The notes below the pieces were generated by a model. The model was given only the letters and a program-made list of their open reading frames with translations, did not search any database and had not been told where the DNA came from. Shown piece after piece: positions 33,709-55,738 of a stretch of 64,000 nucleotides of DNA. A program made the translations under genes and the position numbers. Source of the DNA: Microcoleus sp. (GTDB taxonomy: Bacteria > Cyanobacteriota > Cyanobacteriia > Cyanobacteriales > Microcoleaceae); assembly GCA_042408215.1 (NCBI GenBank), contig JAYFMW010000017.1, positions 416,001 through 480,000 of the forward strand, written 5' to 3'. Positions within the stretch are counted from its first letter, which is position 1, and the number at the start of each line of letters is the position of its first letter.

Positions 33709-35053
33709 TTGACACTCCCCAGCCTAAAGGCGTGGGGATTCTTTGTTCATAGAGCTAACGTGCTGCGGACAGGATTTCTCCAACCAGAGTAGAGGTCAAT
33801 TCTCCCAAAGCGTTGCTTGCGTTAAGCGCAAAGGTTCCGGTATGTCCTACCGTACCCAATCCTCGACTCAGGATATTTCTAGCTGCGTTTTCATCCCTAT
33901 CAAGAGTGCATCCACACTTGCAAACGTGCGTCCTCGTGGATAGCGTTTTCTTGACAATTGCACCGCAGCTAGAGCATTCTTGGCTAGTGTATTGTGGATT
34001 TACCGCAACCGTAACTCTTTCAAATACTTTGCCAAAGTATTCCAGCCAGATACGGAACTGATACCAAGAAGCATCGTTAATAGACTTAGCTAAACAATGA
34101 TTTTTCACCAGATTTTTAATTCTCAAATCTTCGTAAGCTATCAAGTCGTTTGACTGAACTACGCACCGCGCTAATTTCACAGCGTGGTCTTTGCGTTGCC
34201 GACTTATTTTGAGATGGCGTTTTCCTAAAATCTGTCTAGCTTTGCCTCTATTTTTTGAACCTTTAACTTTTCTAGAAACGCGACGTTGAGAGCGCTTAAG
34301 AACTTTTTCACCTGTTCGGAGGAATCTCGGATTTTCAACCGTCACTCCATTTGAATCGGTGTAATATTCCTTCAAACCAACGTCTAATCCGATGGTATTT
34401 CCAGAAGGCTCTATGTTTTCCTTTCGAGCGACATCGACACAGAATTGAACGTACACGCCGTCTGCACGTTTTACCAATCTTACCCGTTTGATTTGGGCGA
34501 TTTGATAGAAATGCAAATCCCGTGTTCCCTTTAATTTGAGTTTACCAATCCCTTTTTTGTCGGTGAATTTGATTGATTTTCTGTCATCCGCAAGTTTCCA
34601 TCCAGTTGATTTATACTCAACTGAGCGACAGTCTTTCTGGAATTGTGGATATCCTTTTTTACCAGGAATTGACTTTTTGCAGTTCTCGTAAAATCGGGAG
34701 ATAGCAGACCAGGCTCGTTCAGCACTGGCTTGTCTAGCTTGAGAGTTAAGTTCGTCGGCAAACGGGAAGTTATGAGCCAATACAGCACAATATTTGTTTA
34801 AATCGTACTTATCTATTTTTTTGTTGTCCATCCAATAGCGCAAACAGCTATTGCGGACAAATTGTGCTGTACGAATCGCTTCATTTACTGCTGCAATCTG
34901 ATTTGATTTTCCGTAAGCTTTGAACTCAAAAACTAGCATCGCCTTACCTCCTGCCTTATACTAGATCTTTTAGCACAAGATTTGCTGGTATTGTAACAAA
35001 GGTTTACAATTAAAGCCGTCCTAAAAGGACGGGGTTTTAAACCCAATTTCCTG
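33709..35053 (-). mobile_element. IS200/IS605 family tnpB-only (IS1341-type) element 1
   Basis: Left end after TTTAT (35058-35054) with CCGTCC-TTTTA-GGACGG hairpin; right-end hairpin ending GAGTGTCAA; no tnpA, no TSD. Confidence 0.88.
33755..34939 (-). CDS. tnpB: RNA-guided endonuclease TnpB
   Basis: RuvC residues GLDVG / YEDL / DRDENAA, zinc finger CSSC..CKC, TSQEC. Confidence 0.93.
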   Translation of the reverse strand: MLVFEFKAYGKSNQIAAVNEAIRTAQFVRNSCLRYWMDNKKIDKYDLNKYCAVLAHNFPFADELNSQARQASAERAWSAISRFYENCKKSIPGKKGYPQFQKDCRSVEYKSTGWKLADDRKSIKFTDKKGIGKLKLKGTRDLHFYQIAQIKRVRLVKRADGVYVQFCVDVARKENIEPSGNTIGLDVGLKEYYTDSNGVTVENPRFLRTGEKVLKRSQRRVSRKVKGSKNRGKARQILGKRHLKISRQRKDHAVKLARCVVQSNDLIAYEDLRIKNLVKNHCLAKSINDASWYQFRIWLEYFGKVFERVTVAVNPQYTSQECSSCGAIVKKTLSTRTHVCKCGCTLDRDENAARNILSRGLGTVGHTGTFALNASNALGELTSTLVGEILSAAR

Positions 35054-36593: not shown

Positions 36594-38555
36594 ATGACAA
36601 CGCTAGATGACAATGCTAATCAAATTGATTTAAACATTCCGGGATTAGGCCCGGATACAATTTTTGCCGGAGCCGGGGCTGATTTCGTTAGAACTTCCAC
36701 CCTGGGCGGCAGCTTAATATTTGGCCAAGCCGATAACGATACTCTTATTTCTGTTGGCCCGAACGATACTTTGCATGGCGACAATGACGAAGACTCACTC
36801 AGATCTCAGGGCACACCCGCCTGGCTGTATGGCGAAGCAGGTAATGACACCATAGTCGCTCAAGGCCGCGCTACGATGGAGGGCGGTGATGGAGACGACT
36901 TCATGCAAGCTACTGCCGATGCTAACCGGATGCTTGGCAATGGGGGCAACGATACGATGCTGGGCGGGGCCGTTGGCAGAGACACCCTCTACGGTGGCAA
37001 GGAGAATGACTCCTTGGGGTTCTTCACCGCAAGCGGAGGCAACAACCTCGGTCTTAACCTAACTGGAGGCTCCGGTGGCAATCAAGGAAGCAACTACTTG
37101 CGGGGCGACTCGGGGGACGACTTGGTTGTGGGCATCAATATCAGAGACACCCTCCTAGGCGGTAAAGGCAACGACACGCTGGTGGGTGTGGCGAGCAACA
37201 GCTATCTGTCTGGCGATAATGGCGACGATTCTTTATATATTAAGAATCCTACCCAGATCCAATTCAACTCATTCACTGGTAACAACAACGATACTGTGAC
37301 TGTCGGCGTTGAAAAAATCACTTTGCGGGGCGGTGCGGGCAACGATACTATCACTGGCGGTTACGGCCAGTCGGGTGGTGGCAAAAACTTGTTTGATGGG
37401 GGCGAGGGTAACGACAGGATCACGGTTTTCGCCACGCAAGATACCGCCCTCGGAGGTGCAGGCGACGACTTCATCGAATCGACTACTGCGCCACCCTCAT
37501 TTAACCCATTACCTAACTTAGCGGGCCAGACATATGTAGGCAGTCGGAACTCTCTCGACGGCGAGGCGGGCAACGACACGATCGTCGGTGGCTATGCGTC
37601 TGATACGATACTTGGCGGTGCAGACAGCGACAGCCTGAGCGGTATCTTTAAGCTAGGCTCCGGTGGAGACGGCAACGATACGATCATTGCCAGTGTCGCT
37701 TTTGGTGGTACTACTCCTATTTCTATTACTCTCGAAGGTGGCCTGGGCGACGATTCCTTAGTTGGCAATGTTAATGCCGGCACCGTCACCAACTTCATGA
37801 ACGGTGGCGCAGGGAATGACACAATCATCTTTGGCTCCACGGGCGATAAGTTGATTGGCGACTTTGCGGGTAACGACTTCATCTCCTATTCCAGTGTTAA
37901 CTTTACCGGTTTTACAACGACGAACCTGATTACCGACAACTTAGGCAACAACTTCATCGATGGCGGCAGCGGCACTGATTCCATAACTACTGGTGACGGG
38001 ATTGACGTACTGTTCGGTCGGGCTGGAGACGATACCTTGAATGCCGGTGGCGGGAACGACACGCTGTTCGGCGACGTTGGTAACGACTATTTGCTCGGAG
38101 GTAATGGTAACGACTCTCTCGGCGGCGCGATCGGTGCTGACACGCTGATTGGCGGCGCGGGTAGTGACAGCTTCTACTACAACAACTCCGGCGAGGGCGT
38201 CGCGCTCGACAGCCTCACCGGCTTCCCCGTCACTACCGGCTTTGGTACCAACCCAGACCAAATCGGCGATTTTAACCCCAGTGAAGACAAGTTTATCTTA
38301 CAGTCCAGCCAATTCGGCTTTGGTACAGTTAGTGTGCCAAGTCGCCTAGCTTCTCAGTCATTCTTGACGGTTGACGCTGGGACTTACAACACCACTACGC
38401 CAGCTCCAACAGGATCATCACCGTTAATCGTTTACGAAGCTGCAAATGGCAGGCTGCTGTACGATGCTGACGGCCAGGGTGGTAAAGATCATATTTACCT
38501 TGCACTTCTGGCCGGCACACCGAGGCTTAATGCGGATAACATTACCCTGATTTAA
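36594..38555 (+). CDS. RTX-type (hemolysin-like) calcium-binding protein
   Basis: Many GG.GND.L nonapeptides; C-terminal D.I.DF...DK..L...G.L.YD.DG. Confidence 0.9.
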   Translation: MTTLDDNANQIDLNIPGLGPDTIFAGAGADFVRTSTLGGSLIFGQADNDTLISVGPNDTLHGDNDEDSLRSQGTPAWLYGEAGNDTIVAQGRATMEGGDGDDFMQATADANRMLGNGGNDTMLGGAVGRDTLYGGKENDSLGFFTASGGNNLGLNLTGGSGGNQGSNYLRGDSGDDLVVGINIRDTLLGGKGNDTLVGVASNSYLSGDNGDDSLYIKNPTQIQFNSFTGNNNDTVTVGVEKITLRGGAGNDTITGGYGQSGGGKNLFDGGEGNDRITVFATQDTALGGAGDDFIESTTAPPSFNPLPNLAGQTYVGSRNSLDGEAGNDTIVGGYASDTILGGADSDSLSGIFKLGSGGDGNDTIIASVAFGGTTPISITLEGGLGDDSLVGNVNAGTVTNFMNGGAGNDTIIFGSTGDKLIGDFAGNDFISYSSVNFTGFTTTNLITDNLGNNFIDGGSGTDSITTGDGIDVLFGRAGDDTLNAGGGNDTLFGDVGNDYLLGGNGNDSLGGAIGADTLIGGAGSDSFYYNNSGEGVALDSLTGFPVTTGFGTNPDQIGDFNPSEDKFILQSSQFGFGTVSVPSRLASQSFLTVDAGTYNTTTPAPTGSSPLIVYEAANGRLLYDADGQGGKDHIYLALLAGTPRLNADNITLI

Positions 38556-41050: not shown

Positions 41051-41097
41051 GATTTGCCGTTGGATGGGAGATTTGCGGTTGGGTGGGGCGGGTTTAC

Positions 41098-42437
41098 CGA
41101 AAAACTGGGTCTAAAGCCCCGTCCTTCTAGGACGGCTTTGTAAAGCTTTGCAAACATAGAGAAAAATCTTATATCTGCTGGAGTAATATAAGGTGGGAGG
41201 TCAAACAATGCTAGTTTTTGAGTTTAAGGCCTACGGAAATAAGAGTCAATTTGTAGCAGTAGATGAAGCAATTCGTACAGCACAATTTGTCCGCAATAGC
41301 TGTATTCGGCTGTGGATGGACAACAACAAGATTGGGCAATACGACTTGCAGAAATACTGTGCCGTACTGGCTCATGAATTTCCATTTGCTGACGCACTCA
41401 ACTCTCAAGCAAGACAAGCTAGTGCCGAACGAGCTTGGTCTGCCATCTCTCGATTCTACGACAATTGCAAGAAGAAAAACCCTGGCAAAAAAGGGTATCC
41501 GCAGTTTAAAAAAAACTGTCGTTCTGTCGAGTATAAAACTAGCGGATGGAAACTCGCCGAAGATAGAAAGTCTATAACCTTTAGCGACAAAAAAGGGATA
41601 GGCAAGCTTAAACTAAAAGGTACTCGCGACCTGCATTTTTATCAAATTAGCCAAATCAAACGGGTGAGATTGGTAAAAAAGGCTACGGGAGTATACGTTC
41701 AGTTTTGTATTGACGCTGAGCGAAAAGAGAATACTGAACCAACAGGAAAGACTGTCGGTATAGACATGGGATTGAAGGAATTTTACACCGACTCAAACGG
41801 AGTAATGGTTGAAAATCCCAAGTTCCTCAGAGCAGGCGAAAAAGTTCTAAAGCGGTGTCAGCGCCGCTTATCTAGAAAAGTAAAAGGTTCAAAAAATAGA
41901 GGCAAAGCTAGGCTGATTTTAGGAAAGCGCCATCTCAAAATAAGTAGGAAACGTAAAGACCATGCTGTGAAGTTAGCACGGTGCGTAATTCAGTCAAACG
42001 ACTTGATAGCTTACGAAAATTTGAGGATAAAAAATATGGTGAAAAATCACTGTCTAGCTAAGTCGATTAACGACGCTTCTTGGTATCAGTTCCGTGTCTG
42101 GATTGAATATTTTGGTAAAGTATTTGAGAGAGTCACGGTTGCTGTCAACCCAGCATATACCAGCCAAGAATGCTCTAACTGTGGTGAAATTGTGAAAAAA
42201 ACGCTATCCACTCGCACCCACGTTTGTAAATGTGGTTGTGTGATGGATAGAGATGAAAACGCAGCTAGAAACATCTTAAGTCGAGGATTGAGTACGGTAG
42301 GGCATACCGGAACTTTCGGACGAGATCCGAGCAACGCTTTAGGAGAATTAACCTCTACTTTGATTGGAGAAATCCGGTCATTGCAAGTTAGCTCGTAGAT
42401 TAAAGAATCCCTGCGCGTTTACGCCAGGGAGTGTCAA
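41098..42437 (+). mobile_element. IS200/IS605 family tnpB-only element 2, inserted in a REP-like hairpin
   Basis: Follows TTTAC (41093-41097); left end aligns with element 1; right end ...GGGAGTGTCAA. Confidence 0.9.
41208..42398 (+). CDS. tnpB: RNA-guided endonuclease TnpB
   Basis: GIDMG / YENL / DRDENAA, CSNC..CKC; colinear with the TnpB at 33755-34939; ATG chosen by homology (MLVFEFKAYG). Confidence 0.93.
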   Translation: MLVFEFKAYGNKSQFVAVDEAIRTAQFVRNSCIRLWMDNNKIGQYDLQKYCAVLAHEFPFADALNSQARQASAERAWSAISRFYDNCKKKNPGKKGYPQFKKNCRSVEYKTSGWKLAEDRKSITFSDKKGIGKLKLKGTRDLHFYQISQIKRVRLVKKATGVYVQFCIDAERKENTEPTGKTVGIDMGLKEFYTDSNGVMVENPKFLRAGEKVLKRCQRRLSRKVKGSKNRGKARLILGKRHLKISRKRKDHAVKLARCVIQSNDLIAYENLRIKNMVKNHCLAKSINDASWYQFRVWIEYFGKVFERVTVAVNPAYTSQECSNCGEIVKKTLSTRTHVCKCGCVMDRDENAARNILSRGLSTVGHTGTFGRDPSNALGELTSTLIGEIRSLQVSS

Positions 42438-42565
42438 GAGATTATGCGTTTTCGGCAATTATTGTCTGTGAACCCGCCCCTACGGTATTTTTTCAAGAGG
42501 TAGATTGTGATTGATGGTGGCGCGGGGGCTGGTTAATCAGGAATTATTGCACCTTAAATCCGCCC

Positions 42566-43240
42566 TTAAAAGTTGAACACTTCAAATTCTGGACTACCAT
42601 AAACCATTTGTTTATCTACCGCCGACAAAACCTTATTGTTAGCGACATCAGAAACTAAACATTGGCAAACTAACTGCGCTACATCGGCCCGATGAATTGT
42701 TCCAGCAACTCGACAATCTTCTGTTAAAATACCGTTGCTCGTTGCTGGTTCCGATTTCAGTCCGCCCGGACGAATTACAGTATAAATCATCCCGCTTGCT
42801 ATCAAGTGATTTTCGGCTTTTTCCTTCTCTATTAAAACTGGCCCCAAAGTTTCCAAAACTTGCGGTTGCAAAGCAGCGGCACTGTTACCGCTACCGATGG
42901 ATGACACTAAAATAAACTTCTGCACTCCTGCTTTTACAGCTGCGTCAATCAAGTTTTTGTTGCCTAAATAATCTGCTCTTTCTCCATCTTTTGGTAAGCC
43001 GCCAATGGTGCTGATTACGGCATAAATCGGTTCGCCACCTGTCATCGCTGCGAGCACGGCATCCGCGTCCAAAGCATCGCCCAGAGCGACTTTGATGCCC
43101 ATTGCTGCTAATTCTGGGCTGGTTTCGGGCGATCGCAAAAGTGCTGTTACTTGCATCTGTTGTTCTGTCAAACATTTCGCGATTTCTAAACCAACGCCTC
43201 GGCTAGCACCTGCTAAAAAAATGTGGGTTCTCTCTGTCAT
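42566..43240 (-). CDS. atypical SDR / NAD(P)H-binding oxidoreductase
   Basis: GASRGVG, DYLGNKNLIDAA, IRPGGL, IHRADVA. Confidence 0.88.
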   Translation of the reverse strand: MTERTHIFLAGASRGVGLEIAKCLTEQQMQVTALLRSPETSPELAAMGIKVALGDALDADAVLAAMTGGEPIYAVISTIGGLPKDGERADYLGNKNLIDAAVKAGVQKFILVSSIGSGNSAAALQPQVLETLGPVLIEKEKAENHLIASGMIYTVIRPGGLKSEPATSNGILTEDCRVAGTIHRADVAQLVCQCLVSDVANNKVLSAVDKQMVYGSPEFEVFNF

Positions 43241-54381: not shown

Positions 54382-54400
54382 AAAGCGATTTTCGATGGGG

Positions 54401-54460
54401 GAGGGCGGGTTTATTTGACCTGTCTGTAACCTTTAAGGCTACTCGCGAACCCGCCCCTAC
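54401..54460 (+). repeat. GGGCGGGTTTA(T/C)...AACCCGCCCCTAC REP-like hairpin
   Basis: Same family as 55670-55738 and the copy split at 41078-42483. Confidence 0.85.
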
Positions 54461-55669: not shown

Positions 55670-55738
55670 GTAGGGGCGGGTTTTACCAACCATCAGTGCC
55701 TAAAACCAATAATCTCATAAACCCGCCCTCACCCAACC
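55670..55738 (-). repeat. uninterrupted GGGCGGGTTTAT-GAGATTAT...AACCCGCCCCTAC hairpin
   Basis: Minus strand ggttgggtgagggcgggtttatgagattattggttttaggcactgatggttggtaaaacccgcccctac. Confidence 0.88.

Follow-up and report, generated by a model that had tools for sequence, protein, structure and literature searches.

A tnpB-only IS200/IS605 element inside a REP-like repeat of Microcoleus, and a genome-wide guide-side gap of perfect matches

The TnpB-omegaRNA systems of ISDra2, IS608 and ISGst have subterminal hairpins, insertion 3' of a short motif without target duplication, a right end in TCAA and a TnpB with intact RuvC domain in common. In IS608, the left-end guide AAAG goes with the target TTAC. 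In this family, a left-end DNA guide picks the target by pairing (bioRxiv 2023.03.14.532601), the insertion motif equals the TAM of TnpB, and the right flank of the element acts as the guide (PMC8612924, bioRxiv 2023.03.14.532601). The empty donor joint has been proposed as the target of TnpB (PMC8612924), and recombination after the empty site has been cleaved brings the element back. For ISDra2 TnpB, a seed of about 12 bp has been described, and double mismatches within positions 1-12 abolish cleavage (PMC10097598; also PMC13639567). The use of stand-alone omega-RNAs in trans has been reported as well (PMC10691335).

We analysed a stretch of 64,000 nucleotides (the window) from the 7.36-Mb genome of a Microcoleus sp., labelled G000 here, with C-numbers for its contigs. 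It contains a tnpB element within a copy of a dispersed repeat (Table 1). On every feature tested, the locus by itself is an ordinary member of the tnpB-only IS200/IS605 class. The element shares the hairpins, the insertion mode, the right end and the intact nuclease with the three described systems, and a right-flank guide and the empty donor joint as target are predicted for it. Only the landing site differs, a repeat copy instead of unique DNA.

Table 1. Features of the analysed locus and related features in the window (window coordinates)
Feature	Position	Strand	Remarks
Element 1, related tnpB-only element	33709..35053	-	84% protein identity; AAAA left-end guide; TTAT target
Upstream gene, 156 aa	40580..41050	+	no Pfam or NCBIfam match; convergent with downstream gene
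Left half of interrupted repeat copy	41077..41097	+	GTGG foot, GGGCGGGTT arm; ends in insertion motif
TTAC target tetranucleotide, predicted TAM core	41094..41097	+	TTTAC including 41093
tnpB-only (IS1341-type) IS200/IS605 element	41098..42437	+	1,340 bp; no target duplication
Left-end hairpin, AAAG DNA-guide tetramer at foot	41113..41139	+	AAAG covaries with TTAC target
tnpB, 396 aa	41208..42398	+	RuvC D186/E270/D349 and zinc-finger region present
Right end: GAAT, hairpin, TCAA	42405..42437	+	predicted 3' part of omega-RNA scaffold (putative role)
Predicted guide, repeat spacer	42438..42457	+	seed 42438-42449
Right arm of interrupted repeat	42471..42483	+	reverse complement of GTAG foot and GGGCGGGTT
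Downstream gene, NAD(P)-binding oxidoreductase	42566..43240	-	PF13460
Third repeat copy	54397..54460	+	TTTAT motif; other spacer subfamily; absent among guide matches listed
Uninterrupted sibling repeat	55670..55738	-	TTTAT motif; predicted not cleavable

The single long ORF between the ends of the element is tnpB, and no tnpA lies there. Its product scored 268.6 bits against NF040570 (cut-off 100), contains PF01385 and PF07282 and could be aligned to solved TnpB structures (E=3e-35). In this alignment D186, E270 and D349 fall in the catalytic RuvC motifs, which bears out the initial annotation's reading of an intact D/E/D triad. The ends of the element comprise subterminal hairpins and no terminal inverted repeats, and its flanks are rejoined without scar in the empty allele. 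In a congener (G005, locus L003) the flanks are directly joined, with 97% identity on either side. Metagenome contigs from two runs (X1, X2) jump from 41097 to 42438, with exactly 1,340 bases missing, and a third run (X16) contains the same empty allele with one additional G in the left arm. These alleles confirmed that the element splits a repeat copy, with exactly the ends given before; of the annotated repeat span 41078-42483 the end was correct, while the start had to be moved to 41077.

The insertion is recent, and the element is not in the relatives inspected. Precise excision could also give an empty allele but is less likely, since the presence of this allele in another species-level genome and three metagenomes argues against it. 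The closest sisters of the element, a 99% copy at C30:369609 and a 92% copy at C6:455806, lie at unrelated sites and thus likewise indicate recent mobility. In G000, tnpA genes adjoin left ends of the same type at C20:496116 and C3:453599, and a Y1 transposase was presumably supplied in trans, cross-mobilising the element. On the RNA side, the predicted omega-RNA scaffold gave no Rfam match at the gathering score, the fold of 42270-42453 was not significant (z -1.0) and a scan for promoters and terminators performed no better than on shuffled sequence. RNA runs contained related sequence only as contigs, from mixed communities. Element 1, the second tnpB element of the window, is preceded by TTTAT as annotated, and its insertion site is non-repeat DNA. 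Positions 36594-38555 of the window encode a 653-aa protein with many GG.G.D nonapeptide repeats, which we take to be RTX-like calcium-binding repeats.

What sets the target of the element? A left-end profile search of G000 gave 166 matches for the family of the window element (family A), of which 151 could be classed by their hairpin-foot tetramer and 139 had a defined junction, with a junction finder that limited motifs to the form [TCG][TCG]A[CT]. The tetramer AAAG went with the target TTAC in 50 of 54 left ends (the other four junctions were unresolved), AAAA with TTAT in 33 of 41, CAAG with TGAC in 20 of 23, GAAA with TCAT in 18 of 21 and GAAG with TCAC in 6 of 7. The TTAC target is dictated by the element's own left-end tetramer, in agreement with the described pairing of a left-end DNA guide (bioRxiv 2023.03.14.532601). 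The base at -5 was T in 30 of the 50 TTAC-type elements of G000. The window element is of the TTAC type and element 1 of the TTAT type, so that TTTAY, previously read as one motif, merges two specificities that go with different left-end variants. In total, at least 225 related left ends occur in G000, and between them they use five target motifs. Five tetramer/motif pairs on one hairpin scaffold amount to natural retargeting, and they predict a panel of TnpB TAMs. At C12:75340-75355, a tnpB element has inserted into, or right against, the left end of a second element that runs in the opposite direction.

The repeat that surrounds the element occurs in 182 copies in G000 under strict and 211 under relaxed pairing of the arms. 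Its traits are inverted arms, GTAG/GTGG feet, fixed spacing, tandem clusters and an extragenic position (37/39 and 112/115 arm-plus-motif sites are non-coding). TTTAY immediately follows the arm in 154 copies. As first noted, the window has an uninterrupted sibling at 55738-55670 and another copy near 54401, both with TTTAT. With the element removed, the interrupted copy folds into a hairpin as single-stranded DNA (z -3.7). Abundance, extragenic position, GT[AG]G-footed inverted doublets and the hairpin are common to the focal repeat and the cyanobacterial GTAG REP/REPIN sequences (PMC3733652, PMC3116915, PMC6006769). Unlike these, the focal repeat comes without a RAYT that we could find: none of the 30 top-ranking RAYT loci in 41 genomes was flanked by it, none lay at its six densest clusters in G000, and the RAYT-like genes of G000 sit in other repeat families. 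With no cognate RAYT found, the repeat is REP-like only. Three Y1-transposase genes (C30:637607-638059, C17:685459-685854 and C20:359230-359574) each lie within their own tandem palindromic-repeat array, resembling REPtrons, and none of these arrays belongs to the focal family. At loci L015-L019, the orthologous intergenic space is occupied by different repeat families across congeners (in L017 by two focal-family copies, head-to-head); repeat turnover at this site is fast.

Insertion sequences that insert specifically into REPs are known (ISPsy8, ISPa11, ISPpu9, ISPpu10, ISRm19 and ISRm22; PMC1525189), and the window element resembles them as an IS in a GT[AG]G-footed, palindromic extragenic repeat. 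The initial annotation had seen a ready-made landing pad in the repeat, and both the 154 copies with TTTAY right after the arm and four independent insertions at this register (the window element, C21:25113 of G000, L021 and L023) speak for it. However, in contrast to the REP-targeting elements, only about 0.2% of the left ends lie in the repeat, which is not above chance. Among 79 congeneric genomes with 6,817 available arm-plus-motif sites, 2 of 1,161 family-A TTAY left ends were found in the repeat versus 1.05-4.9 expected under four null models (the expectation scales the motif densities of G000 to the size of the genomes, and junctions of this kind may be missing from draft assemblies). 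Within G000, the window element is the only one of 166 family-A left ends at the repeat position (0.1-0.46 expected), and C21:25113 the only one of 59 family-B left ends (about 0.5 expected, by hand arithmetic). The 99% and 92% sisters are both in non-repeat TTTAC sites. Under the most permissive null, the focal repeat family by itself showed no significant depletion (P=0.13; 0.064 with G000 left out). When a single genome of each prokaryote species was scanned, two matches came back: one shows the L021 site again, the other (L023) is new.

We then asked where the predicted guide could lead TnpB. The predicted TAM and guide do both derive from the repeat copy, as had been proposed. The window sibling matches the guide over 8 contiguous nt and 17 of 20 positions (mismatches at 9, 10 and 16), and the best TTTAC siblings, three copies at C6:92092-92274, match it to the same extent. 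Hence, the annotated match of a TAM-like motif plus 8 guide nt is present. But the motif of the window sibling is TTTAT and differs from the TTAC target of the element, and an 8-nt match is at chance level, since 47 of 88 elements in G000 have a best self-match of at least 8 nt (none reaches 12 nt). No TTAC or TTAT site in the genome matches the seed, the first 12 nt of the guide, with fewer than two mismatches, and the suggested search for TTTAY followed by the guide with few mismatches returned nothing better than these siblings. The motif plus 12 nt occurs once in the 79 genomes, as the orthologous empty allele of G005. In addition, no two of 163 elements have a guide or an upstream flank in common, and thus nothing has homed between repeat copies. 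The G005 empty allele already has the divergent guide bases, so that, most simply, repeat divergence preceded the insertion instead of being selected by it, and no sibling with a cleavable seed was left. Two of the outcomes that the initial annotation had named as refuting its model, no genomic sibling matching beyond about 8 nt and no enrichment in the repeat, were observed. Taken together, a dedicated TTTAY landing pad from which TnpB homes into or cuts siblings is largely refuted, and we consider it the least probable of all readings. The actual predicted target is the empty donor joint. Of the self-cleavage that had been envisaged, cutting of the siblings falls away, while a genome-wide filter on persisting insertions stays plausible.

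This filter was measured in one genome. The two families comprise 198 left ends with a defined junction. A right end was missing for 28 of them, which left 170, and 7 more with another motif or with a right end in common were set aside, so that the count rests on 163. The right ends come from pattern assignment, which the empty allele verified for the window element only, and the 12-nt cut-off was taken from ISDra2 and not from the window enzyme. The background consisted of non-coding sites that carry these motifs and lie outside both IS605 elements and repeats of at least 200 bp. Across G000, there is a guide-side gap of perfect matches: none of the 163 IS605 elements has a perfect motif-plus-12-nt match elsewhere in the genome. 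By comparison, 28.6 were expected, 22.4 with GC and the -5 base matched, and 17.6 when each context was counted once. The minimum in 20,000 random draws was 12, and the zero holds in each family (0/105 and 0/58). A mostly non-coding background is justified, since 10 of 88 rebuilt empty sites versus 249 of 400 random sites fall in long ORFs; a mix with 50% coding background still predicts 17 matches. Matches of up to 11 nt persist, and seeds with one mismatch are at background (35 versus 36.6 expected). In 24 elements the downstream 14-mer is repeated elsewhere, but never behind the element's own motif. A zero at motif plus 12 nt next to persisting shorter or one-mismatch matches fits the ~12-bp seed of ISDra2 (PMC10097598).

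The upstream flank, from which no guide is taken, served as a mirror control. Sites repeated only upstream were found at nearly the expected number (9 versus 10.8), whereas sites repeated only on the guide side were absent (0 versus 11.1). A one-sided sign test gave p=0.0064, 0.0018 and 0.0033 at 11, 12 and 13 nt (about 0.06 at 14-16 nt), and in permutations the probability was 5e-5 for no guide-side-only site and 0.03 for a difference of at least 9. Counted whole, upstream matches were depleted too (9 versus 28.4); most of the deficit comes from sites repeated on both sides, which a generic loss from repeats would also remove. Repeated 16-mers stayed close to the background both 30-60 nt upstream and from +30 to +38 (21-28 observed, 26-31 expected), and slipped back to 17-22 at +40 to +44. 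They fell to 0 at the motif-plus-12 window and recovered more slowly downstream, with 4 versus 28.9 expected in the window at offset 0 that does not span the junction.

Short elements have no motif-plus-12 match either (0/70 versus 13.0 expected), which fits the use of stand-alone omega-RNAs in trans. In family B, each of the 29 short elements has kept about 140 nt from the right end of a full element. Of the 39 short family-A elements with a match, 17 have less than 60 nt in common with full elements; these may lack an omega-RNA, so that a cause other than TnpB is conceivable. Since the class 'intact tnpB' undercounts family B, we did not use a split into intact and broken copies. A TnpB-free IS as control was not found among the 24 multi-copy families (at least 94% identity) of G000, which by ends and ORFs are mostly IS605, IS607 and IscB types or simple repeats. 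The young mobile DNA of G000 seems to be dominated by elements of RNA-guided nucleases and their short derivatives. By the same inspection of ends and ORFs, no DDE-type IS was apparent among the 24 families.

We infer that TnpB cutting is the cause of the gap. The main alternative is a chance insertion in the absence of any nuclease filter, with insertions scarce in repeated DNA for other reasons: TnpA could be kept from its single-stranded target by hairpins, the element could be deleted as repeat copies recombine or convert each other, and assemblies could break at such places. Such causes would agree with the fold of the empty repeat, which puts TTAC partly in a stem, with the depletion of both flanks close to the junction, with the zero in short elements that may be without guide RNA, and with a permutation P for the asymmetry of only 0.03. 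Yet they are symmetric or centred on the motif, whereas upstream-only sites, including hairpin arms, are filled at the expected rate and guide-side-only sites never. The dip also reaches further downstream, including windows off the junction, and heptamer tandem repeats follow 0 right ends but precede 2 left ends genus-wide (small numbers, denominators not counted; the corresponding pattern controls gave 0, 2 and 3 matches, small numbers as well). We regard a chance insertion without such a filter as unlikely, though as the most probable of the alternatives.

Far less probable is a role of the complex as a roadblock or regulator that binds partly matched siblings at repeat-containing intergenic sites without cutting them. 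ChIP-seq with dead TnpB did reveal many TAM-driven off-target peaks with little need for a seed (bioRxiv 2023.03.14.532601), and at least about 18 TTTAC and about 19 TTTAT sites match the guide with their first 7 or more nt or with at most 5 mismatches in 20. But the nuclease is intact, the insertion recent and the guide not conserved, there is no sign of domestication, and binding of this kind would be incidental.

We thus favour, with some reserve, a young non-autonomous element in a diverged repeat copy: insertions that cut their own genome would be purged, and the present one would owe its survival to siblings that lack the target. A Y1 transposase presumably moved the element in trans and would have pasted it 3' of a TTAC that lay, by chance, within a REP-like repeat copy between two convergent genes. 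TnpB and its omega-RNA would target the empty allele of this single locus, the standard retention mechanism. A second perfect match flanked by the TAM would be cut repeatedly, and siblings could not be filled by recombination, with only ~60 bp of diverged homology in common. Insertions with a perfect TAM-plus-12-nt match elsewhere would consequently kill or burden the cell and vanish. In G000 a perfect sibling exists for 16 of 38 TTAC and 53 of 115 TTAT repeat copies, and about 45% of the focal copies would be such traps. That the siblings of the window element are spared probably reflects survival rather than luck. As a general rule, we lean slightly towards the view that an IS605 element, even a protein-less copy whose guide RNA works in trans, can last only at a site where the TAM and ~12 guide nt occur nowhere else in the genome. 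This footprint of TnpB self-toxicity would imply that the nucleases are active in vivo across many families, that seed length can be read from genomes, and that repeats are forbidden except for diverged copies.

Earlier work suggests that the genome of the host may itself offer TnpB several targets, and that a spread to ectopic sites with a match might occur (PMC10097598, PMC8612924). G000 points the opposite way, as perfect ectopic targets are absent where 18-29 were expected. A TnpB gene drive on multi-copy plasmids (bioRxiv 2025.02.20.638934) resembles our case in that several target copies are met, and conversion of an empty allele of the window locus on a sister chromosome would proceed likewise. 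However, the plasmid copies in that study are fully homologous and can be filled, in contrast to short dispersed repeats, for which the predicted outcome is therefore loss of the insertion and not spread. The genome-wide gap matters more than the locus. If our reading is true, sequence alone would suffice to test which clades of TnpB are active cutters in nature, and how long their seed is. It would further support the use of stand-alone omega-RNAs in trans, and the cost of an RNA-guided nuclease would restrict where such elements can live. We found no description of a guide-side gap in the literature searched (mostly titles and openings of abstracts, few of them from subscription journals), and the accessible part of bioRxiv 2022.10.12.511977 contains nothing on self-targeting.

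Other insertions in or near repeats were inspected for their guides. The four insertions into the focal repeat family with a readable right end are all without a perfect sibling, which is not significant alone (about 0.09, by hand). Among them, the 289-bp protein-less family-B element at C21:25113 occupies the same repeat register behind TTTAT, and its guide has no perfect sibling. At L021, the best guide match comprises 11 contiguous nt at a non-repeat site. The tnpB element at L023 (genome G091) lies in a related repeat with ten identical siblings, each of which departs from the guide by one base, at position 8; they offer a natural experiment on how well a single mismatch is tolerated. Of the five loci behind the genus-wide pattern controls, L059 and L060 apparently go back to one shared event and have no sibling within one mismatch, and at L056 and L058/L063 the right end was not found. 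At L057/L062 an apparent group II intron interrupts tnpB (for L062 judged from the ORF start, not from a family library), and all siblings have one mismatch. The tnpB element of L062 (G073:C29:92000-98500) sits at the end of a heptamer tandem array.

About 20 left ends in G000 (for example at C6:1012547 and C5:339015) carry a small palindromic insert, always at the same position. Metagenome runs X14 and X16 contain tnpB variants with a 24-nt palindromic insert at window position 41461. These inserts look like very small mobile repeats that parasitise the element.
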